A DNA stretch of 64,000 nt from Candidatus Eiseniibacteriota bacterium (lineage in GTDB: Bacteria > Joyebacterota > Joyebacteria > Joyebacterales > Joyebacteraceae), in assembly GCA_030600655.1 (NCBI GenBank), contig JAUVLP010000001.1, positions 2,022 through 66,021 on the forward strand, given 5' to 3'. The position numbers and the translations under genes were made by a program. Below, piece by piece: positions 8,736 to 53,219 of the stretch. A model generated the notes under the pieces. That model was not told the origin of the DNA. It was given only the letters and a program-made list of their open reading frames with translations, and searched no databases. Within the stretch, counting starts at the first letter, position 1; each line of letters begins with the position of its first letter.

Positions 8736-8737
8736 GG

Positions 8738-35302: not shown

Positions 35303-35562
35303 AAAAGGCGTGAATGCACCATTCGCAGCTAGACTATCCTGTACAAATAGAGTACACTTGTACCGTTGTTCGGCAGTCGCATTCTTGGCTGCCGGCGGAC
35401 CGGTGGAACGACATCCACCTGGTCCATCTGATGTTTGGGATCCCCCAGGTGACCGTGTTCAAGTGAATGCGGGGCATGGGGGATTCATGTGCGATAGGCC
35501 GGGTGCGTCGCGGCCTCAAGGTGACGCGATGGTAGTTCATGAGGAAGTCAAGGAGATGTTTG

Positions 35563-38086: not shown

Positions 38087-38955
38087 GTATTTTTCTGGAT
38101 GAAACCACACGAGTCTGCGTCCAGGGAATCACCGGCCGCGACGGCTCGTTTCACACCCGTGCCATGGTGGAGTACGGGACGAATGTCGTGTCAGGCGTCA
38201 CGCCAGGCAAGGGTGGGCAGGAGATGGATGGTATCCCCATTTTCAATACCGTGGGGGAAGCCGTCAACACAACGGAAGCCAATGCAACCATCGTTTTCGT
38301 CCCCGCGAAGTTTGCGGCAGGTGCCGCGATGGAAGCGGTCGAATCCGGCGCAAAACTCGTTGTCTTTGTCTCCGAGGGTGTGCCTACTCTCGATGTGGCG
38401 AAGATCTACAAGCGGACGAAGGAACTTGATGTCCGCATGATCGGGCCTAACTGTCCCGGTATCATAAGCCCCGGGAAATCGAAGCTCGGCATCATGCCTG
38501 GTTTCATCCATTCTCAGGGCGGCATAGGTGTCGTTTCGAGGAGTGGAACGCTGACCTACGAGGTGGTGGATTGTCTGCGTCGCTCCGGGATGGGTCAGTC
38601 GAGCGTCATTGGGATCGGTGGCGATCCGATAATCGGAACCAGCTTCATCGACACGCTCGAAGCGTTCGAGAAGGATAACGAGACGGAAGCTGTCGTGCTG
38701 ATAGGGGAGATCGGCGGGACGGACGAAGAGCAGGCGGCGGAGTTCATCAGGGCCAGGATGACGAAGCCGGTCGTGAGTTTCATCGCAGGCAGAACGGCGC
38801 CCCCAGGAAAGAGAATGGGGCACGCGGGGGCCATTATCGCTGGTGGCAAGGGGACGGCTCAAGAGAAGATGGAAGCGCTGGCGGCGGCGGGCGTGCCCGT
38901 GGCCGACCGTCCGAGTGAGATACCCGGTCTTCTGAAGACTGCGCTTGGGAGGTAG
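38083..38955 (+). CDS. sucD: Succinyl-CoA synthetase α subunit
   Basis: [37 protein letters not shown], and SRSGTLTYE with the active-site His region. It overlaps the sucC stop. Confidence 0.95.
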
Positions 38956-38956
38956 C

Positions 38957-39235
38957 ATGGAGAAGCAGGCGGCCTCGGCCGCGAACGACAGGCGATGGAA
39001 CTACCCGTCGCGCGAAGAGCATCCAGATCAGGACATTTTCATCTACAAGGCTTGGTGCAAGGCTTGCGGTATCTGCATAGAGTTCTGTCCCACAAAGGTT
39101 TTCAGGGCAGACAAGACCGGTTATCCGGTTGTGGAGCATCCGGAGAAGTGCATTGCCTGCAATCTCTGCGAGATGCTCTGTCCGGATATGGCGATCACGA
39201 TCTACAAAGAGCGTGCGAAGAAGAACGGTTCCTAA
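38957..39235 (+). CDS. korD: 2-oxoacid:ferredoxin oxidoreductase δ subunit (2x[4Fe-4S] ferredoxin)
   Basis: IYKAWCKACGICIEFCP...CIACNLCEMLCP gives two 4Fe-4S motifs. It is a small protein directly upstream of the α, β and γ subunits. Confidence 0.7.
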   Translation: MEKQAASAANDRRWNYPSREEHPDQDIFIYKAWCKACGICIEFCPTKVFRADKTGYPVVEHPEKCIACNLCEMLCPDMAITIYKERAKKNGS

Positions 39236-39278
39236 CAAGGGCGGCTAACGGACTACAGAGTCCGGGGGTTCACTAATC

Positions 39279-40430
39279 ATGTCAGGGAGCAAAGAGAGAT
39301 CGATCTGGGTGATGCAGGGGAACGAAGCCTGCTCTGTGGGGGCTGTTGCTGCCGGCGTCAATTTTTTCGCCGGTTATCCCATCACTCCGTCGTCCGAAAT
39401 CGCAGAGTTCATGGCAAAGCACCTTCCACTGATTGGCGGGCGCTTCATCCAGATGGAGGATGAGATTGCCTCGATGGCAGCCATAATCGGCGCATCGCTG
39501 GCCGGTGCGAGATCGATGATCGCTACAAGCGGCCCCGGTTTCTCGCTCATGCAGGAGAACCTGGGATTAGCCTGTCTCGCCGAGATTCCTTGTGTCATTG
39601 TGAACGTTCAGCGTGCAGGTCCCTCCACCGGTCTGCCTACGCAGCCGGCGCAGGGGGATGTCATGCAAGCGCGTTGGGGAACGCACGGCGACCATGCCAT
39701 CATCGCGCTGGCGCCGGCGACGGTCCTCGAGTGCATCGAGCTTACGGCATGTTGCGTGAGTCTGTCGGAACAGTTCCGCACCCCCGTGGTGCTTCTCCTG
39801 GACGAAGTGATCGGTCACATGCGTGAGAGCGTTGAGGTTCCAGCCCAGGGGGCGTACAGAGTGCATGCGCGGCCGCTTCCGAGCGATGAACAGGAGGACT
39901 ACCAGCCGTTCTGCGGTGGGTGCAGTGGCGTTCCTCCGATGGCTCATTTCGGTGGGCCGCATCGCTTCCATGTGACGGGTCTCACTCACGACGAGCGCGG
40001 CTTCCCGACAATGGTGCCTGAGGAAGTGGACAAGAAGATCCGCGGCATCGTGGACAAGATCGAACTCAAGGCGGACGATCTGGCCATGAACGAGGAAACG
40101 ATGACCGATGACTGCGAGGTGCTGCTCTTCTCATACGGTTCTTCAGCACGCGTCGCGAAGGCCTCGGTGAGGACTCTGAGGGAGCGCGGCGTGAAGGCCG
40201 GGCTCCTGCGTGTGAAGACCATCTGGCCGTTCTCAGGCAAGAGGCTCAGGGAACTCGCTCCCCAGCTTCGCAGTATCATCGTTCCCGAGATGAATCTGGG
40301 GCAGCTTGTGACAGAAGTGGAACGTGCGGTGGCTGGCGCTGTTCCGGTCCGACACTTTGGGCGAGTTGACGGGCACCTGTTTGAGCCCGACCAGATCACA
40401 GACTTTGTTCTGGAGGAGATAGCGTCATGA
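39279..40430 (+). CDS. korA: 2-oxoacid (likely 2-oxoglutarate):ferredoxin oxidoreductase α subunit
   Basis: GNEACSVGAVAAGVNFFAGYPITPSSEIAEFMAKHLPLIGGRFIQMEDEIASMAAIIGASLAGARSMIATSGPGFSLMQE is typical of the KorA/PorA transketolase-like domain. Confidence 0.9.
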   Translation: MSGSKERSIWVMQGNEACSVGAVAAGVNFFAGYPITPSSEIAEFMAKHLPLIGGRFIQMEDEIASMAAIIGASLAGARSMIATSGPGFSLMQENLGLACLAEIPCVIVNVQRAGPSTGLPTQPAQGDVMQARWGTHGDHAIIALAPATVLECIELTACCVSLSEQFRTPVVLLLDEVIGHMRESVEVPAQGAYRVHARPLPSDEQEDYQPFCGGCSGVPPMAHFGGPHRFHVTGLTHDERGFPTMVPEEVDKKIRGIVDKIELKADDLAMNEETMTDDCEVLLFSYGSSARVAKASVRTLRERGVKAGLLRVKTIWPFSGKRLRELAPQLRSIIVPEMNLGQLVTEVERAVAGAVPVRHFGRVDGHLFEPDQITDFVLEEIAS

Positions 40431-41335
40431 GCCAGGCCATAGAACGTGCGAGGACCTATCTCAAGCCTCACAAGAAGCTGCCGACCGTATGGTGTGCAGG
40501 GTGTGGTCTCGGGGTCGTGATGAGCAGCCTCACGAGGGTGATGTCCGGGATGGGCCTCGACAAGAACAAGACAGCGACAATCTCCGGTATCGGGTGCACT
40601 GGGCGACTTCCCACCTACATTGATACCAACACTCTACACACGACGCACGGCAGAGCGCTTGGATTTGCCACGGGTGTGAAGCTTGCCAATCCTGAACTCA
40701 CGGTTGTCACAGCAATGGGCGACGGTGACTCTGTGGCGATCGGGGGCAACCACTTCATCCACGCCTGCCGGCGCAATATCGATATCACCGCCGTCGTGGT
40801 GAACAATCAGATCTACGGGATGACGGGCGGGCAGTACTCGCCCACCACGCCTCACGGCAAGCGAGGAACGACCGCTCCCTACGGTAATGTCGAGTACGAG
40901 TTCGACATCGTCTCCCTCGCGACCGGAGCCGGAGCGACATTCGTCGCACGCACATCGGTCTACCACGTGCGCGAGCTGGACAAGCTCCTTGAACGTGCCA
41001 TCCGACACCGTGGGTTCTCTGTCGTCGAGGTCGTCACCAACTGCTACACGAGCTACGGCAGGCTCAACAAATTCTCCGGTCCGGTCGACATGTTCAAGTG
41101 GATGAAGGAGAGCGCGGTCACGGTGAAGCAGGCCGGCGAGATGTCCGCCGAGGAACTCGAAGGCAAGTTCATCCGCGGCATTCATGTTGAGAGGGACCAG
41201 CCCGAGTTCATCGAGGTCTATGACAAGCTCGCCGAAGAGCTGGCGGCGGATTCCTCTGCCGTCAACCTGAAGCGCAGGGCGATGATGGAGAGCTACAGGC
41301 AACTGGGCGACAGGCTCAAGGCGAAGATTGAGTAG
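40427..41335 (+). CDS. korB: 2-oxoacid:ferredoxin oxidoreductase β subunit (TPP-binding)
   Basis: WCAGCGLGVV and the GDGD TPP-binding motif (VTAMGDGDSVAIGGNHF...). It overlaps the korA stop. Confidence 0.9.
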   Translation: MSQAIERARTYLKPHKKLPTVWCAGCGLGVVMSSLTRVMSGMGLDKNKTATISGIGCTGRLPTYIDTNTLHTTHGRALGFATGVKLANPELTVVTAMGDGDSVAIGGNHFIHACRRNIDITAVVVNNQIYGMTGGQYSPTTPHGKRGTTAPYGNVEYEFDIVSLATGAGATFVARTSVYHVRELDKLLERAIRHRGFSVVEVVTNCYTSYGRLNKFSGPVDMFKWMKESAVTVKQAGEMSAEELEGKFIRGIHVERDQPEFIEVYDKLAEELAADSSAVNLKRRAMMESYRQLGDRLKAKIE

Positions 41336-41397
41336 CTGGTGCATCTCGAGGGACGGTCACCGCCGGAGCGCGGCGACACCAATGCGAGGATTCGCAA

Positions 41398-41958
41398 GTG
41401 ACGAAAAGTTCAGGCAGATTCGAGATACGTCTTTCAGGTTCGGGCGGTCAGGGATTGATGCTGGCCGGCAAGCTCCTTGCGGAGGCGGCATCAGTCTACG
41501 GTGGCAAGAACACCGTACAGACGCAGAGCTACGGTCCTGAGGCAAGAGGCGGAAAGAGCAAGACAGATATCGTCATCTCAACCGATGATATCGACTATCC
41601 AAAGGCGACCAGCGTTGACGTGCTTGTCGCCATGACGCAAGTGTCCGCGGATGAATACAGACATTCCCTCAAGGAGGACGGGCTCTTTGTTGTAGACTCG
41701 TACCTCGTTGACAGACCCGGCCGGGACTCCGTCATCGGGATTCCGTTCACACTTCTCGCCATCGAGCAGTGCGGGAGAGCGCTCTTTGCCAACGTGGTTG
41801 CACTCGGCGCGATCGTCGAGCTTTCGAAGGTCGTGGAGTGGGACAGCCTTGAGAAGACGGTACTGGCGCGGGTGCCGAGCGGTACCGAGGAGGCAAACAA
41901 GAAGGCGCTGGCTGTCGGGCGGGAAGCCGCCAGGCGGGCGGTGGGAGAGGTGAGCTGA
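41398..41958 (+). CDS. korC: 2-oxoacid:ferredoxin oxidoreductase γ subunit
   Basis: FEIRLSGSGGQGLMLAGKLLAEAA is the canonical γ-subunit start. GTG start. Confidence 0.85.
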   Translation: MTKSSGRFEIRLSGSGGQGLMLAGKLLAEAASVYGGKNTVQTQSYGPEARGGKSKTDIVISTDDIDYPKATSVDVLVAMTQVSADEYRHSLKEDGLFVVDSYLVDRPGRDSVIGIPFTLLAIEQCGRALFANVVALGAIVELSKVVEWDSLEKTVLARVPSGTEEANKKALAVGREAARRAVGEVS

Positions 41959-42380
41959 TGGACAGGACATTCCTCATGGTGAAGCCGCGGGCCGTTCGTG
42001 ATGGTCTCACGGGAGAGATTCTCACCGCGCTCGAGCAAGGGGGTTTCCGTATCGTAGGCCTTGCATCACGAAAACTGTCTGTCGAAGAAGCTCACGTGTT
42101 CTATGACGTGCATGTGGACAGACCGTTCTTTGGAACTCTCGTCGAGTTTGTTACATCGGGAATGACGGTCGGCGTCATGCTGGAAGCGCCCAACGCGGTC
42201 ACGGCACTCCGGACGTTTATCGGAGCCACCGATCCGGCCAAGGCGGAGCCCTCGAGCATCAGGGGCAAGTACGGCAAGAGCATGACGGAGAACGCGGTGC
42301 ACGCTTCCGACGCGCCGGCGCGCGTGAAACACGAATCAGCCTTCCATTTCGGCGATTGCCCTCGTACACTGGTTGGATAG
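41958..42380 (+). CDS. ndk: Nucleoside diphosphate kinase
   Basis: MDRTFLMVKPRAVRDGLTGEIL, with the active-site His in ...NAVHASDAP. Confidence 0.9.
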   Translation: MDRTFLMVKPRAVRDGLTGEILTALEQGGFRIVGLASRKLSVEEAHVFYDVHVDRPFFGTLVEFVTSGMTVGVMLEAPNAVTALRTFIGATDPAKAEPSSIRGKYGKSMTENAVHASDAPARVKHESAFHFGDCPRTLVG

Positions 42381-42383: not shown

Positions 42384-42917
42384 ATGTTCGCAATGGGCGG
42401 AGCTACCGAGCTATCCGGAGGAACGATGGAGAAGGCGATTGTTCAGGCGGAGACAATGAAGGAGTACCTGGCGACCGTCGATGAGATAGCCGGGAAGTAT
42501 GTGGATGCGCCGGGAAGTGTGATTCCCGTGTTGCAGCAGGTTCAGTCCAGAATCGGTTACCTGCCTATTGAGGTGATTCGGAGAATAGGGCACTCTCTGG
42601 GTGTGCCTTCGTCCCACGTCTACGGAGTGGCCAGTTTCTATTCGCAGTTCAGGTTCAATCCTGTCGGGAAGTACATCGTGAGAGTTTGCCACGGTACGGC
42701 CTGCCACGTGCAGGGGGCGGTCGCGATCAGTGACGCCATCTGTGATGAGCTGAACGTCGAGGATGGGAATACCACCGAGGACGGGATGTTCACCGTGGAG
42801 TCTGTGGCGTGCATCGGTTGTTGCAGCCTTGCCCCTGTGATCATGATCGCGGACGATACATACGGCCGCCTGACTCCCGCCGAGGCACGGAAGATCGTCC
42901 GGGAGTACGGAAAATAA
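42384..42917 (+). CDS. NuoE/HydC-like thioredoxin-fold [2Fe-2S] subunit (StnB-like)
   Basis: VIPVLQQVQSRIGYLP...VASFYSQFRFNPVGKYIVRVCHGTACHVQGA...CIGCCSLAPV shows the NuoE family Cys ligand pattern. Confidence 0.8.
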   Translation: MFAMGGATELSGGTMEKAIVQAETMKEYLATVDEIAGKYVDAPGSVIPVLQQVQSRIGYLPIEVIRRIGHSLGVPSSHVYGVASFYSQFRFNPVGKYIVRVCHGTACHVQGAVAISDAICDELNVEDGNTTEDGMFTVESVACIGCCSLAPVIMIADDTYGRLTPAEARKIVREYGK

Positions 42918-43011
42918 GGCCTGGGCGGCGGTCGATTGCGTGTGGCCGAGCACGGAATCAGAGCGAACCCATTGCGGAACACCCTGTGAAGGGTATCTGG
43001 AAAGGGACAAG

Positions 43012-44799
43012 ATGGCTACTTCGGGCGTGGTTGCTGAGATAACGGTCGGCCTCTCCAGCTGTGGGATTGCCGCCGGAGCTCGGGATGTGTTTGAGACCTT
43101 CCGGGAAAGGCTCCGTGGCCAGGGGATCGATGTCGAGCTCAAGCGCACGGGCTGTGTTGGGATGTGCTACAGGGAACCGCTCGTGGATGTAGTTGTTCCC
43201 GGGTTGGGGAAGACGACGTACGGCGGCGTCACCACCGAACGCGTCGACCGCATCATTGCTGAACACGTGGTGGGCGGAAAGCCGATCGAAGAGTGGTTGA
43301 TCCACGCCGACGGTCGGGAGTTTCCGGATGATGCCTACTTGGCGCCACAGGAGCGGATAGTCCTCAGGAACGCAGGTTTGATCGATCCTGAATCGATCGA
43401 TGACTACATAGATGCGGGCGGCTATGATGCTCTCGCGACCGTGCTCAAGTCCATGTCGCCCGGCGACATCATATCGGTAATCAAGGACTCCGGTCTGAGG
43501 GGGCGCGGCGGAGCCGGTTTTCCGACCGGCGTGAAGTGGGGTCTGGCCAAGCAGCAACCGGGAGACACCAAGTACGTCATAGTCAACGCCGACGAGGGAG
43601 ATCCCGGCGCCTTCATGGACAGGAGCATTCTTGAGGGCGACCCCCATTCGGTTCTAGAAGGCCTCGCGATCTCTGCGTTCGCAATCGGAGCCAACGAGGG
43701 CTACTTCTACGTCCGCGCGGAATACCCTCTCGCCATCAAGCGCCTTGAGATAGCTATTGCCGATGCCACGGAGCGAGGATTTCTCGGAAGCGACATTCTG
43801 GGATCCGGATTTGGATTTACAGTGAAGATCAAGGAAGGCGCCGGAGCTTTCGTCTGTGGCGAGGAGACGGCTCTCATCGCATCCATCGAGGGCAAGAGGG
43901 GGATGCCGAAGTTGCGGCCGCCGTATCCCGCTGTCGAAGGGCTCTGGGGCAAGCCGACCAACATCAACAACGTCGAAACGTATGCGAACATCGCCTGGAT
44001 CATCACAAATGGGGCCGCGGCGTATGCGAGCCACGGTACTGAGACCAGCAAGGGAACGAAGGTCTTCGCGCTCGCCGGGAAGATCGTTCGCGGTGGACTT
44101 GTTGAAGTCCCGATGGGCATTCGATTGAGAGACATCATCTTCAAGATCGGCGGTGGTGTACCTGAGGGACGGGTGTTCAAGGCCGTTCAGCTCGGTGGGC
44201 CATCCGGTGGCTGCATTCCGGAGGAGCACATTGACATCAAGGTCGATTACGAGTCCGTGACGAAAACGGGTGCTATCATGGGCTCGGGCGGAATGGTTGT
44301 CATGGACGATTCGACCTGCATGGTGGACATCGCGCGGTTCTTTCTCAACTTTACCCAGAACGAAAGCTGCGGCAAGTGCACGTTCTGTCGAGTAGGCACC
44401 AAGCGAATGCTGGAGATCCTTGAGCGCATTTGTGCCGGAGACGGACGGGAAGGCGATATCGAACTCCTGCAAGAGCTGGGCGAGAAAATCGTGAGTTCGT
44501 CGCTCTGTGGACTAGGGCAGAGCGCGCCGAACCCTGTTCTTACTACTATCAAGTACTTCAGGAATGAGTACGAGGCACACATTCGTGAGAAACGCTGCCC
44601 GGCGCTCGTGTGCAAGGCGCTTCTGACCTATGAAGTTGTTGCAGAGAATTGCGTAGGCTGTACGCTGTGCACCAGAGCATGTCCGGTGGGTGCGGTGAGC
44701 GGCGAGAAAAAGCAGCCGCACACAATAGATCAGGATCTCTGTACGAGCTGCGACGCGTGCAGACAGGTATGCAAGTTCGACGCGATCATGGTTCGCTAG
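43012..44799 (+). CDS. NuoF/HydB-like NADH-binding FMN/[4Fe-4S] flavoprotein with an N-terminal [2Fe-2S] domain and C-terminal 2x[4Fe-4S] (StnC-like)
   Basis: GRGGAGFPTGVKW (FMN site), VVNADEGDPGAFMDR (NADH site), ESCGKCTFCR (N3 cluster). The C-terminus CVGCTLCTRACP...CTSCDACRQVCKF has two ferredoxin motifs. The first ATG (MATSG) follows AAAGGGA. Confidence 0.85.
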   Translation: MATSGVVAEITVGLSSCGIAAGARDVFETFRERLRGQGIDVELKRTGCVGMCYREPLVDVVVPGLGKTTYGGVTTERVDRIIAEHVVGGKPIEEWLIHADGREFPDDAYLAPQERIVLRNAGLIDPESIDDYIDAGGYDALATVLKSMSPGDIISVIKDSGLRGRGGAGFPTGVKWGLAKQQPGDTKYVIVNADEGDPGAFMDRSILEGDPHSVLEGLAISAFAIGANEGYFYVRAEYPLAIKRLEIAIADATERGFLGSDILGSGFGFTVKIKEGAGAFVCGEETALIASIEGKRGMPKLRPPYPAVEGLWGKPTNINNVETYANIAWIITNGAAAYASHGTETSKGTKVFALAGKIVRGGLVEVPMGIRLRDIIFKIGGGVPEGRVFKAVQLGGPSGGCIPEEHIDIKVDYESVTKTGAIMGSGGMVVMDDSTCMVDIARFFLNFTQNESCGKCTFCRVGTKRMLEILERICAGDGREGDIELLQELGEKIVSSSLCGLGQSAPNPVLTTIKYFRNEYEAHIREKRCPALVCKALLTYEVVAENCVGCTLCTRACPVGAVSGEKKQPHTIDQDLCTSCDACRQVCKFDAIMVR

Positions 44800-44848
44800 G
44801 GCGAATCAACAGATCTTGAGAGCGAGGCTGAATTAGAGAGGGAACAAG

Positions 44849-47800
44849 GTGGCACTGGTAACTGTCTCCCTTGATGGGAAGGAAGTACAGGTAGAGCACG
44901 GTATTACCATCCTTGAGGCTGCTAGGCGAAACGGGATAGAGATACCGACACTATGCCATGATGAACAGCTCGAGCCTTTCACGTCCTGCTGGGTCTGCGC
45001 GGTCAAGCTGGAGGGCGTGAAGCGGTATGTACCCTCATGCGGAACACGAGTGGCAGAGGGGATGAAGATCTGGACGGACACTGAGGACGTGCGTGCGGTG
45101 CGACGGATGGCGCTCGAACTCCTAATGTCGAACCACCGGGGCGACTGCATCGCGCCATGTCAGGTGGCGTGTCCGGCAAGCGTCGACGTCCAAGGGTACA
45201 TTGCTCTCATCGCGAACAAGAAGTACCGTGAGGCGACGGCGCTCGTCAAGGAAGTGAATCCATTCCCTCTGTCGATCGGACGCGTCTGCACCCGACCGTG
45301 CGAGGATGAGTGCCGCAGGAACGCCATGGAGGGACCGGTCTGCATTGATTTCCTGAAGCGGTTCGCGGCGGACTGGGACATCGATCATCCGGGGCCGTTC
45401 TCACCCCCGGTCGCGCCCTCGACGGGGAAGAGAGTTGCGATGGTGGGGGCAGGACCAGGCAGCCTTACGGCCGCCTACTACCTTGTCCAGAAGGGCCATG
45501 CAGTCACGATCTTCGAGGCGCTACCGGCTGCGGGAGGAATGCTTCGCTACGGCATCCCGGAGTACAGGCTACCCAAGAACACTCTTGATGATGAGATCGG
45601 ACTCATCACGCGGCTCGGTGTGACCATCGAATACGGCAAGGCTCTCGGTCGCGATTTCGTGCTGAAGGATCTCTTTGATGATGGGTTCGACGCGATCTTC
45701 CTTGGGCTGGGCGCGATGGGAAGCCGCAAGATGCGCATTGACGGAGAGGACCTCGAAGGGGTTTGGGCCGGGACCGATTTCCTCAAGGAGATGGGTCTCG
45801 ATAACAAGGTCAAGATAGGAAAGAGTGTCGCCATTATCGGAGGTGGGAACACGGCCGTCGATGCGGCGCGAACGTGCCTTCGTCTCGGTGCTCAGAATGT
45901 GACCATTGTGTACCGCAGGTCACGCAAGGAAATGCCTGCATGGGATGTCGAAGTCGATGCCGCCGAGCACGAGGGCATTGTCATGCATTTCCTTGCAGCT
46001 CCGACGAAGATAGATGGAGACGGGAAGTGCGAGCGGCTGGAGTACATCCGCATGGAACTCGGTGAGCCCGACGAGAGCGGACGTAGACGTCCCGTTCCAA
46101 TAGAAGGTTCTGAGGAACTCCTTCCTGTCGACAATGTGATCGCCGCGATCGGTCAGATCCCGGATCTCAATTGCATCCACTCGACAGTCGAGAAGAATCC
46201 CAAATCCCTGGAGGCTGGGCTGGAGCTCACGCGTTGGGGCACCATCGTTGCAGACGAGAGGACATGCGCGACATCAGTTGAGGGCGTCTTTGCCGGTGGC
46301 GACGTCGTAAACGGAGCCGCTACTGCCATCGAGGCGATCGCACACGGCGGCAAGGCAGCGGTCGCAATCGACAGGATGCTCAGCGGCGGCAAGTTCGACA
46401 GTAAGACTCCTTTCTTCAACGCTCAGAAGGAGCGCTGGGATCATTTTCCGGAGGAAGAACTCAAAGACGTTCCTCGTCAGGAGCGCCAGGAGATGCCGGA
46501 GCTTTCCGTCAATGCGAGGATTCGCACGTTCGAAGAAGTGGAACTCGGGTTCACCGAGGAGCAAGCGCTTGAGGAGACCAAACGTTGTCTCGAGTGCGGC
46601 TGCATAGATGCATTCACATGCGATCTGAGAACACACTCGGCGGAGTACGATGTCAGGCCCACGCAGTATGCGGGCGATATGCTCCACGAGCTACCTGATG
46701 TACGGCACCCGTTCATTCGTATAGAACCTGAGAAGTGCATCATGTGCGGCCGCTGTATCCGCACCTGCGAGGTGGTGGAGGGAGCATCAGCTCTCGGTTT
46801 CTTCCAGCGGGGATTCGATGCCCAGATGAAACCGAGCCTTGGTCTGCCTCTCGCTTCGACCGAGTGCGAGTCGTGTGGACAATGCGTCACGGTCTGCCCG
46901 ACTGCGGGAATCTCCGAAAAGCCCCTTGCGATCAAACCCGGGCCGTGGGATCTCGAATCCACAGACTCGATCTGCGGTTTCTGTGGGACCGGATGCGCGG
47001 TGAATCTCAATACAATTGCTGGAGATCTGGTGTCGGTGACGCCTTCGGCTGCCGGTGTCAATGACGGGAATCTCTGTGTTCGCGGCAGGTTCGGTTTCCG
47101 TGCACTTTATATGGGGGAGCGCGTCACGCGGCCTCTCTTGCGTAGAGACGCTGGTCTCGATGAGGTGAGCCTGCCCGACGCGCTTGAGCGGGTAGCGAGC
47201 GTCCTCAAGAGCACGGTGCAGACCTCAGGGCCTGGATCCGTAGCGGTTTTCGGCTCAACGCGGTTGACGAACGAAGAGGCCTACCAGTTGCAGAAACTGG
47301 CCAGAGCGGGTCTAGGAACCCCGAACCTGGGCTCATTCGGTACAGCATCGGAAAGCGCGATCTTCGGTGCGCTGAGGCACGCGGTCGGGTATGCAGCTTC
47401 GACTGCATCCTACGACGACGTCAGAGGGGCGGACGTCATTCTGCTCATGGACTCCGACGTTGCGGAGGAGCAGACTGTCGCGGGCATAGCCATAAGAAAG
47501 GCAGTGAGGAGAGGGGCACGGCTTCTCGTTATATCACCGCGTGCGACCCGGATGGCCCGATTGGCGGATACGTGGATTCAGGTTGACCGAGATACGGTGG
47601 GTGATCTCGTCAGGGGGATGTTGGATCATCTCCTGTCGGAGGGTGTGGTTGATGTTGACGCTCTGCCGTATGGGTTGACGGGATTGGAAGAGCTTCTGGC
47701 GTCGCTTCCTGTCGGCGGTCTTGCGAAGGCCGCGTCAGCTGCGGGAATTGAACCCGATGTGGTCCGCGCTGTAGCCCAGGCATTCGCTTGTGCAGAGAAG

Positions 47801-48691
47801 GGCGTTTTGATCGCCAATGCAGCGTCCTTCTCAATAGCTACGGCTGACCGTGATGCGGCGGGCGCAATAGCGCTTGCCGCAATTTCCGGCAAGGTGGCGG
47901 GTGACGGCTCGGGTGTTCTGTTCCTTCGGATGAAGGCAAACGGACAGGGGATAGCGGATGTCGGCCTCGATCCGTTGCTGCTTCCGGGTCAGTCGTCAGC
48001 TCTCTGCGAGGAGTCGCGTGCGGATCTTGAGGCACTGTACGGGGCGTCTGTACCAGCTCCGCTTTATGGCGACACGAATGCGCTTTTCGAAGGCATAGAG
48101 TCCGGCACTGTCCGGGCTGTGTTGATAGTCGGGGAGGATCCGGTCGGCGGCTCCAATAATCACGAGAGGGTGCGAAAGGCCCTTTCCGGACTCGATTTCC
48201 TTGCTGTAGCCGACTCGGTTCCGACCGCAACCACAGCGCTGGCTGATATCGTGATACCGCTTGCTGCTCTTGCTGAGGTTCATGGAAGCTACACAAACAG
48301 TGAACGGAGAGTCCAGTCGGTCGCCAGAGCCGTGGATGCAGAGCACGACACGCTGACAATGCTGGGTGCCCTCAGTCGGCTGCTCGGAGTAGAGTCCGGC
48401 GAGAGTGTTCCGGCGGCCGTGAGGCGGGAATTTGGTCAGGTCTCGAAGTGGATCGATTTTCCTCCGGGTGAGCCGGGTATTCCCGGCCAGAGGTGGTTTG
48501 GTAGAGGCTTGCACGGTGAGATCCCGGCCATGACCGGGATGACCGTGGCGCTTGACGGTTTCGAAGTGGAGAGCTACGGAGTCTTTTTCGATCCACGCTG
48601 GATCGATGCTCTCGAAGCACGCTTTTCGCGGCTGGCAGAGAAGGAAGGGCTGGCCGACCACATTGTCAGGCGCGTGGGACTTTCGGCTTGA
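44849..48691 (+). CDS. 1280-aa fusion: plant-type [2Fe-2S] ferredoxin + GltD-like NAD(P)H:FAD oxidoreductase + NuoG/FdhA-like Fe-S and molybdopterin-fold domain (StnA-like large subunit)
   Basis: Residues 1-80 form the [2Fe-2S] domain (LCHDEQLEPFTSCWVCAV...PSC). Residues about 85-520 are GltD-like with 2x[4Fe-4S] (CIAPCQVACP...VCTRPCEDEC) and dinucleotide folds (VAMVGAGPGSLTAAYYL, VAIIGGGNTAVD). Residues about 560-700 carry the NuoG-type clusters (CLECGC...C, CIMCGRCIRTCE, CESCGQCVTVCP). Residues about 700-1280 form a molybdopterin-oxidoreductase-like fold (ICGFCGTGCAVNL...). No H-cluster motifs and no in-frame TGA. Confidence 0.75.
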   Translation: MALVTVSLDGKEVQVEHGITILEAARRNGIEIPTLCHDEQLEPFTSCWVCAVKLEGVKRYVPSCGTRVAEGMKIWTDTEDVRAVRRMALELLMSNHRGDCIAPCQVACPASVDVQGYIALIANKKYREATALVKEVNPFPLSIGRVCTRPCEDECRRNAMEGPVCIDFLKRFAADWDIDHPGPFSPPVAPSTGKRVAMVGAGPGSLTAAYYLVQKGHAVTIFEALPAAGGMLRYGIPEYRLPKNTLDDEIGLITRLGVTIEYGKALGRDFVLKDLFDDGFDAIFLGLGAMGSRKMRIDGEDLEGVWAGTDFLKEMGLDNKVKIGKSVAIIGGGNTAVDAARTCLRLGAQNVTIVYRRSRKEMPAWDVEVDAAEHEGIVMHFLAAPTKIDGDGKCERLEYIRMELGEPDESGRRRPVPIEGSEELLPVDNVIAAIGQIPDLNCIHSTVEKNPKSLEAGLELTRWGTIVADERTCATSVEGVFAGGDVVNGAATAIEAIAHGGKAAVAIDRMLSGGKFDSKTPFFNAQKERWDHFPEEELKDVPRQERQEMPELSVNARIRTFEEVELGFTEEQALEETKRCLECGCIDAFTCDLRTHSAEYDVRPTQYAGDMLHELPDVRHPFIRIEPEKCIMCGRCIRTCEVVEGASALGFFQRGFDAQMKPSLGLPLASTECESCGQCVTVCPTAGISEKPLAIKPGPWDLESTDSICGFCGTGCAVNLNTIAGDLVSVTPSAAGVNDGNLCVRGRFGFRALYMGERVTRPLLRRDAGLDEVSLPDALERVASVLKSTVQTSGPGSVAVFGSTRLTNEEAYQLQKLARAGLGTPNLGSFGTASESAIFGALRHAVGYAASTASYDDVRGADVILLMDSDVAEEQTVAGIAIRKAVRRGARLLVISPRATRMARLADTWIQVDRDTVGDLVRGMLDHLLSEGVVDVDALPYGLTGLEELLASLPVGGLAKAASAAGIEPDVVRAVAQAFACAEKGVLIANAASFSIATADRDAAGAIALAAISGKVAGDGSGVLFLRMKANGQGIADVGLDPLLLPGQSSALCEESRADLEALYGASVPAPLYGDTNALFEGIESGTVRAVLIVGEDPVGGSNNHERVRKALSGLDFLAVADSVPTATTALADIVIPLAALAEVHGSYTNSERRVQSVARAVDAEHDTLTMLGALSRLLGVESGESVPAAVRREFGQVSKWIDFPPGEPGIPGQRWFGRGLHGEIPAMTGMTVALDGFEVESYGVFFDPRWIDALEARFSRLAEKEGLADHIVRRVGLSA

Positions 48692-48716
48692 CTTGGTGGC
48701 TTTGTCCATCTAAGAT
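48688..48716 (+). promoter_or_regulatory. Candidate strong sigma-70 promoter (TTGACT-17-TAAGAT) for the rpmF-plsX-fab operon
   Basis: TTGACT at 48688-48693 overlaps the upstream gene's stop. A 17-nt spacer precedes TAAGAT at 48711-48716, about 100 nt upstream of the rpmF ATG. Confidence 0.45.
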
Positions 48717-48816: not shown

Positions 48817-49005
48817 ATGGCTGTTCCAAAGAGAAAAACCTCCAAGTCTATCGGAAGGAAACGCAGGACTCACAAGAAGTTGGCGAGCCCACCGCTCTCC
48901 GTCTGTCCGTCCTGTGGCGAGCCCAAGCTTCCGCATCGGATGTGTCCGCACTGCGGGGTGTACAAGGGCCGTGAGATCCTCCCGGAGGAGAAGGAGAAGG
49001 AGTAA
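48817..49005 (+). CDS. rpmF: 50S ribosomal protein L32
   Basis: [21 protein letters not shown]... with zinc-ribbon Cys pairs CPSCG...CPHCG. GGAGG lies 6 nt upstream. Confidence 0.9.
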
Positions 49006-49006
49006 G

Positions 49007-50044
49007 GTGTCCATAGTTCCCGGAAGCAGTCCTGCAGGCGGCAGTTCGGCTTCGCGGCCTATTCGAATCGCGGTGGATGCGATGGGCGGCGACAACGCGC
49101 CGGGTGTTGAGATTGGGGGAGCCATAGCGGCAGCCAGGGAGGCCGAAGGGGAGATCGAGGTTGTTCTCGTTGGGCAGCGGGGTCTCCTTGAGGCTGAGAT
49201 AGCTAAGCGTGACGCGACGGGTCTGCCGATTTCGATAGTGGATGCCGCTGACGTTATTGGGATGCACGATGCCCCCGCAGAGGCCGTGAGGCGGAAGCGG
49301 GGGTCTTCTCTTGTGGTCGCGACAACGCTCCACAAGAAAGGCGAAGTGGATGGACTGGTGAGCGCAGGTAACACCGGAGCCGTGGTGGCAGCGGGTCTCT
49401 TGGGCTTGGGTATGCTCCGGGGTGTGCGTCGTCCTGCCATTGCCAGCCTCTATCCGACACTCAAGGACCCCGCGATAGTGCTGGACGTCGGGGCGAGTGT
49501 CGACTGCCGGCCGTCCGACCTCCTGGAGTTCGCGGTCATGGGTATGGCATATGCGCGTCATGTTCTTGGGCGCGATGACCCTCAGGTGGCGCTTGTGAAC
49601 ATCGGAGAGGAACCGTCGAAGGGCAATGAACTCACGAGGGCGGCACACAGACTTCTGAAGGAGAGCGATCTTACGTTCATCGGCAACATCGAGGGGAGTA
49701 GTATTCTGGCCGGCGCGGCCGACGTCATCGTCTGTGACGGTTTCGTTGGCAATGTCATACTGAAACTCACCGAAGGACTGATCCACATCCTGCCGAGGTT
49801 TCTGTCGCAGGGAAGCGGTATCGCAGCCGGAGATGCTGATGGGCTGAGGCGCAAATTCGACTACGCTGAGTATGGTGGCGCACCTCTCCTGGGTGTGAAC
49901 GGCGCTGTCATTATCGCCCATGGAGCCTCATCAGAGAAGGCGATAAAGAATGCTGTGAAGGTTGCCGCGAAGTTCGTTGACGCTGATGTTGATGGCGTGA
50001 TCGTGGATACGCTGAGAGAGGTGGTGTCGAACGATGGCCGATAG
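49007..50044 (+). CDS. plsX: Phosphate acyltransferase PlsX
   Basis: IAVDAMGGDNAPGVEIGGAIAAA... is the PlsX signature. GTG start 1 nt after the rpmF stop. The long upstream extension in the track is a frame artefact. Confidence 0.9.
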   Translation: MSIVPGSSPAGGSSASRPIRIAVDAMGGDNAPGVEIGGAIAAAREAEGEIEVVLVGQRGLLEAEIAKRDATGLPISIVDAADVIGMHDAPAEAVRRKRGSSLVVATTLHKKGEVDGLVSAGNTGAVVAAGLLGLGMLRGVRRPAIASLYPTLKDPAIVLDVGASVDCRPSDLLEFAVMGMAYARHVLGRDDPQVALVNIGEEPSKGNELTRAAHRLLKESDLTFIGNIEGSSILAGAADVIVCDGFVGNVILKLTEGLIHILPRFLSQGSGIAAGDADGLRRKFDYAEYGGAPLLGVNGAVIIAHGASSEKAIKNAVKVAAKFVDADVDGVIVDTLREVVSNDGR

Positions 50045-51026
50045 CGCGCGGAACGCATACATCGCCGGTATGGGCATGTATGTGCCCCCCAAGGTGATGA
50101 CGAACGAAGATTTCGCTAGAATCGTTGATACGTCAGACGAGTGGATCACCCAGATGACCGGGATCAAGGAACGGCGTCACGTCGAGGCTGATGTGGCAAC
50201 ATCCGACCTCGCGACGGCGGCGTCGAAGATAGCCATGGAGAAGGCCGGTGTGACTCCCGATGAGATCGACATGATCATCGTGGCGACAGCTACGCCGGAC
50301 ATGTTCTTCCCTTCGACGGCGTGTCTTGTTCAGACGAACATCGGCGCCGTCAATGCGTTTGCGTATGACATGGTGGCTGGATGTTCCGGTTTTATATATG
50401 GTCTTGTTATCGGCGAGCAATTCATCAAAGCCGGCACGGTGGAGACCATTCTTCTGATCGGAGCTGAGACGCTTTCCAAGGTGTCCAACATGACCGACAG
50501 GAACACGTGCGTTCTCTTCGGCGACGGCGCAGGAGCCGCGATTCTGCGTCCGTGCGAAACGCCGAAAGGGGTTATCGATCACGTCATTGGTTCCGACGGT
50601 TCTCTAGGCAGTCTTCTGTCTCTGCCTGCCGGCGGGTCGAGAATGCCGGCCTCCCACGAGACAGTTGACAAGGATCTGCACATGATCTACATGGACGGCC
50701 GCAAGGTCTATGTTAACGCAGTGAAGAAAATGGGTGACTCAGTCGTGCAGGTCCTCGATCAGCAGAACCTGACGGGCGACGACATGGACATACTCTTTCC
50801 ACATCAGGCGAATCTTCGCATCATCACGAGCGTCGCCAAGCGGGCAGGGATGCCGATAGAGAAGGTCTACATCAACATCCATAAGTATGGGAACACATCG
50901 GCGGCGTCGATCCCACTTGCGATGTGTGAGGCCATCGACGACGGGAGCTTGAAAGAAGGCATGCTCGTCGGTCTGGTAGCGTTTGGCGCCGGTTTCACCT
51001 GGGGCTCGGCCTTAATAAGGTGGTAG
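50034..51026 (+). CDS. fabH: 3-oxoacyl-ACP synthase III
   Basis: YIAGMGMYVPPKVMTNEDFARIVDTSDEWITQMTGIKERR. The active-site Cys is in AYDMVAGCSGFIYGL. C-terminal AFGAGFTWGSALIRW. Confidence 0.9.
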   Translation: MADSARNAYIAGMGMYVPPKVMTNEDFARIVDTSDEWITQMTGIKERRHVEADVATSDLATAASKIAMEKAGVTPDEIDMIIVATATPDMFFPSTACLVQTNIGAVNAFAYDMVAGCSGFIYGLVIGEQFIKAGTVETILLIGAETLSKVSNMTDRNTCVLFGDGAGAAILRPCETPKGVIDHVIGSDGSLGSLLSLPAGGSRMPASHETVDKDLHMIYMDGRKVYVNAVKKMGDSVVQVLDQQNLTGDDMDILFPHQANLRIITSVAKRAGMPIEKVYINIHKYGNTSAASIPLAMCEAIDDGSLKEGMLVGLVAFGAGFTWGSALIRW

Positions 51027-51033
51027 AGGATTC

Positions 51034-51975
51034 ATGGAACGCATAGCACTGCTCTTTCCGGGGCAGGGATCGCAAGCGGTAGGGATGGGGAAGGACCTCT
51101 TCGAGAGTTCCCCGAAGGTCCGTGAGATCTACGAGCGTGCGTCTGAGGCAATAGACCTCGACCTTGCAGTTCTGAGCTTCGAGGGTCCTGAGGACGAACT
51201 TAAGAAGACAGTCAACACACAACCGGCACTCCTGGTGGCCGGGGTGGCGGCATTGGCGCTGGTGCTTGATAGAGGTGTTGAGCCGTGGGCCGTGGCCGGT
51301 CACAGCCTGGGTGAGTACACGGCGCTCGTGGCGGCTCGCAGTCTCAAACTCGAGGACGCTGTTCGTGCGGTACGCGAACGCGGCAGACTGATGTACGAGG
51401 CGGGCCTCAAGACTCCGGGCACGATGGCAGCCATTATTGGACTGGGCGCGGACGTACTTGACGGTGTGGTTGCGGAGGCTGGATCCGCAGGAGTCGTGCA
51501 GGTCGCGAATTACAACTCCCCGTCGCAGATTGTTGTCTCAGGCGAAACGACGGGAGTGCGGATGGCGATGCAGCTTGCTACGGAGCGGGGAGCTCGTCGA
51601 GCCATCGAGCTCAAAGTCAGCGGCGCCTTCCATAGTAATCTGCTCGAGAGTGCCCGTCTGGGGATGGAGGCGTTTCTCGAGAGTGTCGTCATCGAGAAAC
51701 CGCAGGCTATCTTCGTTGCTAATGTGGCGGGTGGTGCGATCGATGATCCTGAGGTGATTCGGGAAAACCTGGTGAGACAGATCACGAACCCCGTGAGATG
51801 GGTCGACAGCATGAGGACGATCGTTGACCTTGGGGCAGAGCGACTGATAGAGGTCGGTCCTGGTAATGTGCTCAGAGGGCTCATGAGAAAGATAGACGTC
51901 TCAGTTCCTACTGCGGGCGCCGGTAGTCTGAAGGAGATAGAGATGCTCGTGGACGGTCCGCCGGCCGGTCGGTAG
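51034..51975 (+). CDS. fabD: Malonyl-CoA:ACP transacylase
   Basis: IALLFPGQGSQAVGMGKDL, with the active site in GHSLGEYTALVAA. Confidence 0.9.
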   Translation: MERIALLFPGQGSQAVGMGKDLFESSPKVREIYERASEAIDLDLAVLSFEGPEDELKKTVNTQPALLVAGVAALALVLDRGVEPWAVAGHSLGEYTALVAARSLKLEDAVRAVRERGRLMYEAGLKTPGTMAAIIGLGADVLDGVVAEAGSAGVVQVANYNSPSQIVVSGETTGVRMAMQLATERGARRAIELKVSGAFHSNLLESARLGMEAFLESVVIEKPQAIFVANVAGGAIDDPEVIRENLVRQITNPVRWVDSMRTIVDLGAERLIEVGPGNVLRGLMRKIDVSVPTAGAGSLKEIEMLVDGPPAGR

Positions 51976-52010
51976 CCGGCAGGGTCCGGCTCGGGCAGTG
52001 AGGAGGATCC

Positions 52011-52751
52011 ATGCGACTCGATGGAAGACAGGCGGTGGTTACAGGCGGTGGTTCGGGTATAGGCCGGGCCATCGCGCTCAGACTCGCGTCCGAAGGAGCC
52101 AGCATTGCCGTCGTGGACATCAATGAGGAGAGTGCATCCGCCGTCGCCACCGAGATTGAGGAAGCCGGGGGCACGGCCAGGGCATATGTGCTGGATGTTT
52201 CCGATGCGGTTGCGGCCGCCGGCGTGATGAAAAAGGTGGCCGAGGATCTTGGAGGTCTCGGTATCCTGGTTAACAATGCTGGGATCACTCGTGACAATCT
52301 GCTCATCAGGATGTCGCCTGACGATTGGGACCTGGTCCTCAAGATCAACCTCAAGGGTACGTTCAACTGCACTCGTGCAGTGGCCAGGATCATGATGGCT
52401 GGTCGTTGGGGGAGGGTCATCAACATCTCGTCGGTCATAGGGCAGATCGGCAATGTCGGACAGGCGAGCTACGGCGCGTCAAAGGCCGGCATCGTGGCGC
52501 TGACCAAGACCACCGCACGCGAGCTTGCATCACGCGGGATTACGGCCAACGCGATAGCGCCCGGTTTCATTGAGACTCCTATGACCGAGAAACTGTCGGA
52601 GAAGGCCAGGGACGGTCTGGCATCCATGCTCATTATCAAGCGAATGGGGAAGCCGGAGGACATAGCGAATCTGGTTGCATTCCTTGCTTCTGATGAAGCA
52701 GACTATATCACTGCGCAGACGATAAATGTAGATGGGGGCATGGCCTCGTAG
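52011..52751 (+). CDS. fabG: 3-oxoacyl-ACP reductase (SDR)
   Basis: VVTGGGSGIGRAIALRLA (TGxxxGxG), NNAG, and the catalytic YGASKAG motif. Confidence 0.9.
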   Translation: MRLDGRQAVVTGGGSGIGRAIALRLASEGASIAVVDINEESASAVATEIEEAGGTARAYVLDVSDAVAAAGVMKKVAEDLGGLGILVNNAGITRDNLLIRMSPDDWDLVLKINLKGTFNCTRAVARIMMAGRWGRVINISSVIGQIGNVGQASYGASKAGIVALTKTTARELASRGITANAIAPGFIETPMTEKLSEKARDGLASMLIIKRMGKPEDIANLVAFLASDEADYITAQTINVDGGMAS

Positions 52752-52793
52752 GCTTGGTTCCCGTGGCTTCAACGAACTCAGGAGGTAGAAAGA

Positions 52794-53033
52794 ATGGCGG
52801 ATGTCTTGGGGAAGGTCAAGCAGGTCATTGCGGAGAAGCTCCAGATCGACGCTGAACAGGTCACAATGGAGGCGGCGATCGTTGAGGATCTGGGGGCGGA
52901 TTCGCTCGAGCAGGCAGACATTCTGTTCTCGCTCGAGGACGAGTTTGGTATTACAGCCGATGATTCCGACGAGGCCGAGGGCCTCAAGACCGTTGCCGAT
53001 ATCGTTGCCTATCTGGAGAAGAAGGTAGGTTGA
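52794..53033 (+). CDS. acpP: Acyl carrier protein
   Basis: 79 aa. LGADSLEQADILFSLEDEFGI carries the phosphopantetheine attachment Ser in the DSL motif. Confidence 0.95.
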   Translation: MADVLGKVKQVIAEKLQIDAEQVTMEAAIVEDLGADSLEQADILFSLEDEFGITADDSDEAEGLKTVADIVAYLEKKVG

Positions 53034-53219
53034 CAGGCGGAGCGGCGATTGTGAACCGCGGTTCCACTCTTCGTATGGGGCCGCGGCTCATGGTCACAGA
53101 ATCGCAAGTGTGTTTCTGCAGGCCGGTTCGGCGATGGCGTGCGCGCGCACGGATGTAACGCGCGAGAAGACCCCGAGCACAGGCGACAATGTGTACGGGG
53201 TGGAACATGAGAGGAACGC

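Follow-up and report, generated by a model that had tools for sequence, protein, structure and literature searches.

A candidate electron-bifurcating transhydrogenase of the StnABC/NfnABC family in a Candidatus Eiseniibacteriota genome

The three genes and their products

In this study, we analysed a 64,000-nucleotide (nt) stretch from the genome of a Candidatus Eiseniibacteriota bacterium (GenBank assembly GCA_030600655.1, contig JAUVLP010000001.1), hereafter the window, and the three consecutive genes in it that we call stnA, stnB and stnC (Table 1). The first-pass annotation had marked three open reading frames (ORFs) here and described their products as NuoE-like, as NuoF-like with extra domains and as a large fused subunit. 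All three ORFs were found in place on the + strand, at 42381/42384-42917 (178 amino acids, aa), 42940-44799 (619 aa) and 44849-48691 (1280 aa), with intergenic gaps of 22-95 nt, and the Pfam searches agreed with the description of each product. The start of stnA is probably the ATG at 42427, although the ORF, which the stop of the preceding ndk gene abuts, is open from further upstream, because a GGAGG sits 4 nt 5' of this ATG. Likewise, stnB probably starts at the ATG at 43012, although its ORF is open from a GTG at 42940, because the homologue alignments begin only at ORF residue 32-34. Residue 1 of StnC, read from the GTG at 44849, pairs with residue 1 of the solved homologue 9bov_A, and a ribosome-binding site, AGAGAGGGA, lies 5' of this GTG.

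Three solved complexes recur below: NfnABC of Caldicellulosiruptor saccharolyticus (9bov), StnABC of Sporomusa ovata (8oh5) and NfnABC of Thermococcus sibiricus (9n5u). StnA matched the Pfam family 2Fe-2S_thioredx (PF01257, 8.5e-51), and its top three matches among solved structures were 9n5u_C (7.5e-54), 9bov_C (3.8e-51) and 8oh5_A (1.6e-49). The four Cys of its two motifs all align with those of NfnC and StnA in the solved complexes, which is the feature of a BfuC-type subunit.

In StnB, Pfam recognised Complex1_51K (5e-47), NADH_4Fe-4S (3.4e-34), at the C-terminus (residues 566-618) a Fer4 dicluster and, at the N-terminus (residues 34-108), a weak thioredoxin-like [2Fe-2S] remnant. The protein matched 9bov_B (2.5e-265), 8oh5_B (1.2e-259) and 9n5u_B (9.1e-257) best, ahead of NiFe-HydB (2.6e-227) and FeFe-HydB (5.6e-215) and, by a wide margin, of the best formate dehydrogenase (FDH) beta subunit (6.3e-128) and NuoF (~1e-110). 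Expressed as bit scores, the Nfn-type B subunits (857-885) exceeded NiFe-HydB (760), FeFe-HydB (623-719), FdsB (431) and NuoF (~373). Over ~585 aa it shares 64% identity with NfnB of C. saccharolyticus and 63% with StnB of S. ovata. Comparison with 9bov_B, 8oh5_B and 9n5u_B showed that it keeps the motifs GRGGAGFPT, NADEGDPGAF and SCGKCTFC...LCGLGQ; the loop binding flavin mononucleotide (FMN) and the B1 [4Fe-4S] cluster motif align with the solved enzymes, as do eight Cys in the 2x[4Fe-4S] domain at the C-terminus (B3/B4), where ferredoxin is predicted to dock. Xiao et al. (2025, PMC12018979) reported C437, H524, C529 and C534 as the Zn ligands of T. sibiricus NfnB, and these pair with C460, H547, C553 and C558 (ORF numbering) at the B2 site of StnB. 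The N-terminal thioredoxin-like B5 site has three Cys, the same number as in S. ovata and T. sibiricus. Schut et al. (2022) described non-bifurcating homologues as lacking the B2-B5 sites.

The Pfam domains of StnC follow each other in the order Fer2_4 (3-78), Fer4_20 (101-178), Pyr_redox_2 (195-500), Fer4_Nqo3 (621-685), Molybdop_Fe4S4 (704-754) and Molybdopterin (758-1166), and the same search returned neither an H-cluster domain (PF02906, Fe_hyd_lg_C) nor Molydop_binding (PF01568). This agreed with the first-pass annotation, which had noted no H-cluster, no obvious complete molybdenum module and a GltD-type insert between the [2Fe-2S] domain and the NuoG-type clusters. It had also advised delimiting the domains by hidden Markov model searches, and the Pfam and NCBIfam results were concordant: residues 1-643 match NF009454 (PRK12814, a GltD-like model of 657 positions, 2.6e-210), and the C-terminal part gave sub-threshold NCBIfam matches to FdhA and NuoG models. 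Among solved structures, StnC matched 9bov_A (1.8e-251), 8oh5_C (1.1e-232) and 9n5u_A (1.2e-184), colinear over residues 1-915 with 9bov_A 1-889 and over residues 2-883 with 8oh5_C. Conservation was read from 118 full-length homologues with the same Pfam set, found among the best 120 database matches and consisting of 45 sequences of an Eisenbacteria-like clade (57-88% identity) and 73 of a second clade (~42-45%); the 7998 matches at E<=1e-50 were not taken as the family size, as single-domain GltD and FDH proteins can score likewise. If the fusion into one polypeptide was meant earlier as a difference from StnABC, it does not stand as one, for StnC/NfnA (1172-1178 aa) are fused alike; with this same build and 118 of the best 120 matches full-length, an unusual fusion was ruled out.

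The four ligands of the N-terminal [2Fe-2S] domain of StnC are invariant in all 118 homologues. The GltD-like module has two [4Fe-4S] sites from C100, C104, C108, C147, C151, C155 and K170, and H96 is probably a further ligand. Its site for flavin adenine dinucleotide (FAD) is G200-x-G202-x-x-S205, and its NADPH site comprises G331-G-G-N-T-A and Y355-R-R-S358. These fingerprints, which had been proposed for the GltD-like segment and were checked here, are present and invariant across the homologues together with K170, R240 and H96, except that the third Gly of the FAD motif differs between clades (see below). The RRS motif suggests a specificity for NADPH. K170 lies in the motif F-L-K-R-F and aligns with K170 of S. 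ovata, and R240, in the invariant motif GIPEYRL, aligns with S. ovata R239. The Lys ligand of the FAD-proximal [4Fe-4S] cluster (K170 in S. ovata, K165 in T. sibiricus) has been reported to be strictly conserved in the StnABC/NfnABC family, and mutagenesis indicated the importance of both S. ovata residues, K170 being essential and R239 required for activity. The NuoG-type region holds C580/C583/C585/C591 and the ferredoxin-type [4Fe-4S] motifs C630/633/636/640 and C673/676/679/683, of which 11 Cys are invariant and C676 is present in 117/118 homologues. StnC thus has 28 ligands, namely 26 Cys (all invariant apart from C676), H96 and K170, which would fit one [2Fe-2S] and six [4Fe-4S] clusters when ligands are assigned to clusters from the sequence; the same complement has been reported for StnC and NfnA. 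Two further traits of StnC are particular to the Eisenbacteria-like clade, an additional Cys394 that is invariant within it and an insertion of 12-13 residues at ~441-455, in the GltD-like domain, when compared with the enzymes of C. saccharolyticus and S. ovata.

Table 1. Coordinates of the stn genes, the StnC regions and the flanking genes in the window
Feature	Position	Strand	Description
stnA / nfnC (BfuC)	42427-42917	+	NuoE/HydC-like; one thioredoxin-like [2Fe-2S]; motifs CHGTAC...CIGCC
stnB / nfnB (BfuB)	43012-44799	+	NuoF/HydB-like; FMN and NAD(H) site
stnC / nfnA (BfuA)	44849-48691	+	1280-aa NADP(H)-binding large subunit; GTG start
StnC 1-95	44849-45133	+	HydA/NuoG-type N-terminal [2Fe-2S] domain; ligands C36, C47, C50, C64; Fer2_4 1.6e-18
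StnC 96-565	45134-46543	+	Inserted GltD/NfnL-like module; Fer4_20, Pyr_redox_2, NF009454
StnC 575-690	46571-46918	+	NuoG-type Fe-S region; Fer4_Nqo3, Fer4_21
StnC 700-1167	46946-48349	+	FdhF-like Mo-bisPGD fold, domains I-III; Molybdop_Fe4S4, Molybdopterin; no PF01568
StnC 1168-1280	48350-48688	+	C-terminal tail; poorly conserved, mostly coil in the model, one terminal helix
Upstream genes (Pfam)	36947-42380	+	sucC 36947-38086, sucD 38083-38955, korD 38957-39235, korA 39279-40430, korB 40427-41335, korG 41398-41958, ndk 41958-42380
Downstream genes	48817-54461	+	rpmF 48817-49005, plsX ~49040-50044, fabH 50034-51026, fabD 51034-51975, fabG 52011-52751, fabF 53220-54461

StnC's FdhF-like domain

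The C-terminal half of StnC was searched for a complete FDH module, and none was found. The ligands of the molybdenum-bis(pyranopterin guanine dinucleotide) (Mo-bisPGD) cofactor were aligned with FDHs, as the first-pass annotation had advised, using the FdhF of the T. kivui hydrogen-dependent carbon dioxide reductase (HDCR), the FDH of M. hungatei and a selenocysteine (Sec)-containing F420-dependent FDH as references. In all three alignments (7qv7_S, 7bkb_D and 9t1s_L), Ser834-Glu835 stand at the columns of the Sec/Cys-His pair, so that Sec/Cys is replaced by Ser and His by Glu. Arg1027, the equivalent of FdhH Arg333, is kept and is invariant within the Eisenbacteria-like clade, and Arg745 occupies the position of FdhH Lys44. 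The [4Fe-4S] ligands of the domain are C709/712/716/743. Each alignment stops at about FDH residue 472 and leaves ~240 residues of the FDH C-terminus unmatched, domain IV being absent. Position 834 is variable even inside the Eisenbacteria-like clade (R, L, A, G or S), whereas Glu835 is invariant there and variable in the second clade. Among the homologues, the FdhF-like domain is the least conserved part of StnC, as expected for a scaffold.

An AlphaFold model of StnC residues 570-1280 (predicted local distance difference test, pLDDT, 88; predicted template-modelling score, pTM, 0.91) contained FDH-like domains I-III. Foldseek gave this model template-modelling (TM) scores of 0.81-0.82 to the alpha subunit of NAD-dependent FDHs and 0.75-0.76 to 8oh5_C and 9bov_A. 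In the model, the C-terminal tail appears to occupy the place that the remainder of domain I and the domain IV beta-barrel take in real FDHs; it has little secondary structure, and the pLDDT dips near model residues 650-660. Identity of the tail to the query was 0.19-0.47 in the Eisenbacteria-like clade, and the tail is largely gapped in the second clade.

A formate dehydrogenase was ruled out by the Ser-Glu pair in place of Sec/Cys-His, the variable columns, the missing PF01568 and the truncated C-terminus, and the domain is predicted to lack catalytic activity. In S. ovata, the FdhF-like domain and its clusters serve assembly and tetramer formation and not electron transfer, as reported by Kumar et al. 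(2023, PMC10482914). The domain in our StnC appears less degenerate than in the solved Firmicute enzymes. We regard it as quite unlikely that the module in the Eisenbacteria-like and related 1235-aa clades is more than a dead scaffold and binds a nucleotide, a pterin-like ligand or a partner; such a retained role is conceivable because of the near-complete domain I-III fold, the Arg333-equivalent, the clade-invariant Glu835 and the closer FDH likeness. If it were true, this binding could add a further regulatory input to the transhydrogenase, or endow it with a fourth redox activity.

Family assignment, mechanism and alternative explanations

Taken together, the data suggest that the product of the locus is a soluble transhydrogenase of three subunits with flavin-based electron bifurcation (or confurcation). 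It would belong to the StnABC family, which is the same as NfnABC or 'Nfn-Bfu', and we put the probability of this assignment at about 0.85. The assignment was made because the three best solved matches of each subunit are the 9bov, 8oh5 and 9n5u complexes, which agreed with the earlier proposal of a StnABC-type candidate, and a chance match is no concern because the E-values reach 1e-265. All sequence-level hallmarks of StnABC/NfnABC that we looked for were found, namely the gene trio, the fusion, the ligands, the Lys and the Arg, an Fdh-like domain of inactive type, and the BfuB and BfuC features.

The closest well-described systems belong to the same family. StnABC of S. ovata (PDB 8oh5/8oh9; Kremp et al. 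2020, PMC7483475; Kumar et al. 2023) has a 1172-aa StnC that fuses an Fe-only-hydrogenase-like [2Fe-2S] domain, a GltD-like NADPH/FAD domain, NuoG-type clusters and an inactive FdhF-like domain (PMC10482914). The genes of the window share with it the order NuoE-like, NuoF-like, large subunit, an identical domain order in the large subunit, the K170/R239 equivalents, the same Cys set, and the Zn-site residues and C-terminal dicluster domain of StnB. Unlike S. ovata StnC, our large subunit is 108 aa longer (1280 versus 1172), its FdhF-like domain is far less diverged from FDHs, its similarity to S. ovata StnC fades past ~residue 883, its C114 equivalent is Val, its FAD motif ends in Ser, and it carries the insertion at ~441-455; the host is an Eisenbacteria-like metagenome-assembled genome (MAG) and not a Firmicute acetogen, and the genomic context differs. 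NfnABC of C. saccharolyticus (PDB 9bov/9bp5; Li et al. 2025, PMC11829005) is the best solved match of the large and the NuoF-like subunits. Its NfnA holds seven Fe-S clusters and FAD and its NfnB holds FMN, B1, B3, B4 and Zn (PMC11829005), a cofactor plan that our proteins share. However, B5 of its NfnB is a Zn(Cys)4 site with a fourth Cys where our StnB has Thr, and the C-terminal domains of NfnA and StnC are only weakly alike (21.5 bits, second stretch). The NuoE-like subunit finds its best match in T. sibiricus NfnABC (PDB 9n5u/9n5v; Xiao et al. 2025), which also carries Val at the position of S. ovata C114, three B5 Cys and identical Zn-site ligands. Its archaeal large subunit is of 963 aa, with a truncated Fdh-like domain and no cluster labelled A4 (PMC12018979), while StnC retains the full Cys set.

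The comparison with more distant systems was also informative. NfnAB/NfnSL, the classical bifurcating transhydrogenase (for example PDB 4ylf, 5jca), catalyse the same overall reaction, and NfnB/NfnL are homologous to the GltD-like module (4ylf_B 5.9e-97, 5jca_L 1e-88). In NfnAB the FAD of this module itself bifurcates, an Arg being in contact with N5 and a Glu serving as cluster ligand, whereas our complex, like Stn, has the Lys ligand, bifurcation assigned to the FMN/NuoEF-type core and no NfnA/NfnS-type subunit. NfnAB/NfnSL were ruled out for the locus, since the cluster ligand is Lys and not Glu and no FNR-like partner gene is adjacent. A bifurcating [FeFe]-hydrogenase HydABC was ruled out as well, because an H-cluster domain is missing and only the N-terminal ~100 aa match HydA (8a6t_A and 7q4v_A, residues 2-101 only). 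With FdsABG/FdhF (6tg9, 7vw6, 7qv7_S) our proteins have the NuoE/NuoF/NuoG-type input module in common, and the C-terminal matches reach 7.8e-65; unlike these FDHs, StnC has no Sec/Cys-His pair and no domain IV but has an inserted NADPH/FAD module, and StnB carries the extra domains of bifurcation type. SfrAB of Geobacter sulfurreducens, compared by description only and listed by Kremp et al. as related to Stn (PMC7483475), consists of the same GltD-like (NADPH-binding) and inactive FdhA/NuoG-like blocks. In SfrAB these are separate polypeptides with no NuoE/NuoF-type core described, whereas here they are fused and adjoin such a core.

By analogy with the solved enzymes, NADP(H) would react at the non-bifurcating FAD in the GltD/NfnL-like module of StnC. 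Single electrons would move along a wire that consists of the Lys170-ligated [4Fe-4S], another [4Fe-4S], the clusters of NuoG type and the N-terminal [2Fe-2S] and that ends at the B1 cluster and the FMN of StnB, where NAD(H) would bind. The FMN, B1 and the [2Fe-2S] of StnA would form the bifurcating 'flavobicluster', from which the low-potential branch would lead to the two C-terminal [4Fe-4S] clusters of StnB, with ferredoxin (Fd) docking there, and movement of the NuoE-like subunit may serve as the gate. The net reversible reaction would be NADH + 2 Fd(red) + 2 NADP+ + H+ <-> NAD+ + 2 Fd(ox) + 2 NADPH. Catalytically dead, the FdhF-like domain would act as a scaffold that bears off-pathway clusters and has a role in assembly.

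Several observations weigh against this reading. The B5 site of StnB has only three Cys and may hold either a [2Fe-2S] cluster or Zn. The position of S. ovata C114 is Val in StnC, as it is in T. sibiricus NfnA, and the S. ovata authors had already remarked that some homologues carry this variant. In the FAD GxGxxG motif, Ser205 takes the place of the third Gly in 45/45 sequences of the Eisenbacteria-like clade. Moreover, the homology of StnC to the solved enzymes (1e-185 to 1e-251) rests on its N-terminal 770-915 residues, and its C-terminal 711 residues share 28-30% identity with the solved homologues. The FdhF-like domain scored 223 bits to 7qv7_S versus 119-132 to the same domain of StnC/NfnA, and by fold it is also nearer to FDH (TM 0.81 versus 0.75); this likeness, together with the Arg333-equivalent, may leave room for a residual function. 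Finally, activity, NADP(H) specificity and direction are read from homologues to which StnB is 63-64% identical.

In a non-bifurcating NAD(P)H oxidoreductase, NADPH would exchange electrons with NAD+, or NAD(P)H with ferredoxin, and the three substrates would not be coupled energetically. We consider this reading unlikely, although homologous NuoEF-type modules occur in the non-bifurcating R. capsulatus FDH, in complex I and in an S. wolfei hydrogenase, and the uncertain occupant of B5 would be in keeping with it. Whereas the non-bifurcating homologues of Schut et al. are without B2-B5, Zn (B2) ligands, an N-terminal domain and C-terminal 2x[4Fe-4S] clusters are all found in StnB; the protein is 63-64% identical to two enzymes demonstrated to bifurcate, and C. 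saccharolyticus NfnABC bifurcates though its B5 holds Zn (PMC11829005). An Nso-type reductase that uses NADPH on sulfur or polysulfide, or another enzyme with an 'artificial-acceptor-like' small-molecule substrate, would not serve the balance of the pyridine nucleotide pools. Such an enzyme is suggested by T. litoralis NsoABC, which is cited among the closest homologues of StnC and had at first been reported to be an NADPH-dependent sulfur oxidoreductase, and by the high NADPH:viologen activity of isolated StnC. But Kremp et al. (PMC7483475) considered that Nso may itself be an NADH-dependent Fd:NADP+ oxidoreductase, a related T. sibiricus homologue was later demonstrated to bifurcate as Nfn, and the flanks of the locus contain genes of the tricarboxylic acid (TCA) cycle, ferredoxin and fatty-acid metabolism and none of sulfur metabolism, which makes a sulfur reductase very unlikely.

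A functional molybdo- or tungsto-enzyme, for example a NAD(P)-linked bifurcating FDH with a Ser-ligated metal and a fourth substrate at the FdhF-like domain, is to our mind a most improbable solution. Ser is a metal ligand in dimethyl sulfoxide (DMSO)-reductase-type enzymes, and the domain keeps the FDH domain I-III fold (TM 0.81-0.82), the score of 223 bits against a real FdhF, the Arg333-equivalent and the clade-invariant Glu835. Yet a metal ligand at position 834 is hard to reconcile with R, L, A, G and S at this position within one clade, His141 is replaced by Glu, and the Lys44 position by Arg. Domain IV (PF01568) and ~240 FDH C-terminal residues have given way to poorly conserved coil, the domain is the least conserved part of StnC, and no molybdopterin-synthesis or FDH-accessory genes were found within the 64-kb window. 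In the solved StnC, the corresponding domain has no catalytic activity (PMC10482914).

Gene neighbourhood, lineage and significance

The first-pass annotation had placed sucCD, a 2-oxoacid:ferredoxin oxidoreductase and ndk directly upstream of the three genes, and Pfam identified them all: the products are succinyl-CoA synthetase, a four-subunit 2-oxoacid:ferredoxin oxidoreductase and nucleoside diphosphate kinase. The small korD gene on the + strand codes for a 2x[4Fe-4S] delta subunit with the motifs CKACGICIEFCP and CIACNLCEMLCP, and its presence gives the oxidoreductase four subunits; a 93-aa ORF at 38995-39276 was rejected as being in the wrong frame, the true small gene being korD. sucCD, kor and ndk are probably in the same transcription unit as stnABC. 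The genes downstream form a canonical fatty-acid/phospholipid synthesis cluster, a consumer of NADPH, and rpmF-plsX-fab is probably a transcription unit separate from stnABC. The gap between stnC and rpmF is 125 nt and contains a promoter-like site, TTGACT-17-TAAGAT at 48688-48716, which overlaps the stop codon of stnC. The scan for promoters and terminators, in which this was the one plausible promoter-like site before rpmF, revealed no convincing terminator; it is weak evidence, as terminator-like sites occurred at background level. rpmF, between stnC and plsX, encodes ribosomal protein L32 with the zinc ribbon CPSCG...CPHCG and has a GGAGG upstream of its start. An N-terminal extension of plsX by 110 aa (ORF from 48725) was discarded as an artefact, rpmF occupying that stretch in another frame.

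The DNA had been thought to come from a possibly uncultured lineage, and the closest loci were indeed those of Eisenbacteria-like MAGs, labelled Candidatus Eisenbacteria, Effluviviaceae or unclassified, including one Candidatus Eisenbacteria fragment that is 95% identical. In nine Eisenbacteria-like MAG loci with StnC identity of 61-73%, the arrangement sucCD-korDABG-ndk-stnABC followed by rpmF-plsX-fab was kept in 9/9 as far as the contigs reach, and the upstream sucCD-kor-ndk order in the seven whose contigs extend that far. The stnABC trio was present in loci L001-L005, L007, L009-L011 and L013, while L006 and L008 are cut upstream and show stnB and stnC only. The second clade has the three-gene module at 44% identity in an unrelated genomic context, and the module also occurs in loci labelled delta-proteobacterial and Geothermincolales. 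In L010, which carries a delta-proteobacterial label, the gene at 8001-10043 adjoins stnA- and stnB-like genes and matches only StnC residues 4-692; this gene and the coverage of PRK12814 suggest that short forms without the Fdh-like domain exist, or that the domain is a separate protein. Earlier surveys placed StnABC/NfnABC in Firmicutes, Proteobacteria, Synergistetes and Euryarchaeota, and our literature search found no paper reporting Stn/Nfn in Eisenbacteria or Effluviviacota.

Some other features of the window were observed, all on the + strand. At 55581-58838, 7 kb 3' of stnC, an acyl-CoA dehydrogenase gene (55581-56750) is followed by genes for an EtfB-like (56810-57619) and an EtfA-like protein (57648-58838), the latter with a 2x[4Fe-4S] ferredoxin domain at its N-terminus (Fer4_21, residues 6-54). 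These genes appear to form another candidate for a flavin-based bifurcating system, of the Bcd/EtfAB type with a ferredoxin-fused EtfA. A phosphotransacetylase gene adjoining one for a FAD-linked oxidase (D-lactate/glycolate-dehydrogenase-like) at 23987-26472, and a DUF362 protein with a C-terminal 4Fe-4S domain at 28743-29894, hint at a fermentative, ferredoxin-using lifestyle. A histidine-degradation cluster at 11602-16147 encodes urocanase, a hutI-like amidohydrolase, and formiminotransferase and cyclodeaminase as separate genes. ORFs of 1135, 650 and 444 aa at 105-3512, 17254-19206 and 35539-36873, the last directly 5' of sucC, matched no Pfam family at E<=1e-6. Otherwise, the window consists of ordinary chromosomal housekeeping genes.

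The StnABC/NfnABC family is already characterised structurally and biochemically, and the locus adds no new mechanism. What is new is the host lineage and the conserved kor-stn-fab gene order; the other departures from the characterised members are the longer and more FDH-like C-terminus and small motif variants. Homologues of StnC are labelled 'formate dehydrogenase major subunit' or 'molybdopterin-dependent oxidoreductase', which is misleading, and our analysis corrects this annotation; left uncorrected, such labels would wrongly imply formate metabolism in metabolic reconstructions of uncultured phyla.

The order of a ferredoxin reducer (kor), stnABC and consumers of NADPH (fab) gives a testable hypothesis for the re-oxidation of ferredoxin that a ferredoxin-dependent TCA step has reduced and for the supply of NADPH. 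Ferredoxin reduced by kor would be re-oxidised by the complex and, together with NADH, would provide NADPH for biosynthesis, such as the adjacent fab pathway. In the opposite direction, NADPH would supply reduced ferredoxin for the reductive carboxylation of succinyl-CoA, that is, for 2-oxoglutarate synthesis. Both directions are equally compatible with the sequence, and the conserved gene order suggests that StnABC may in this way couple ferredoxin turnover to NADPH in this lineage.

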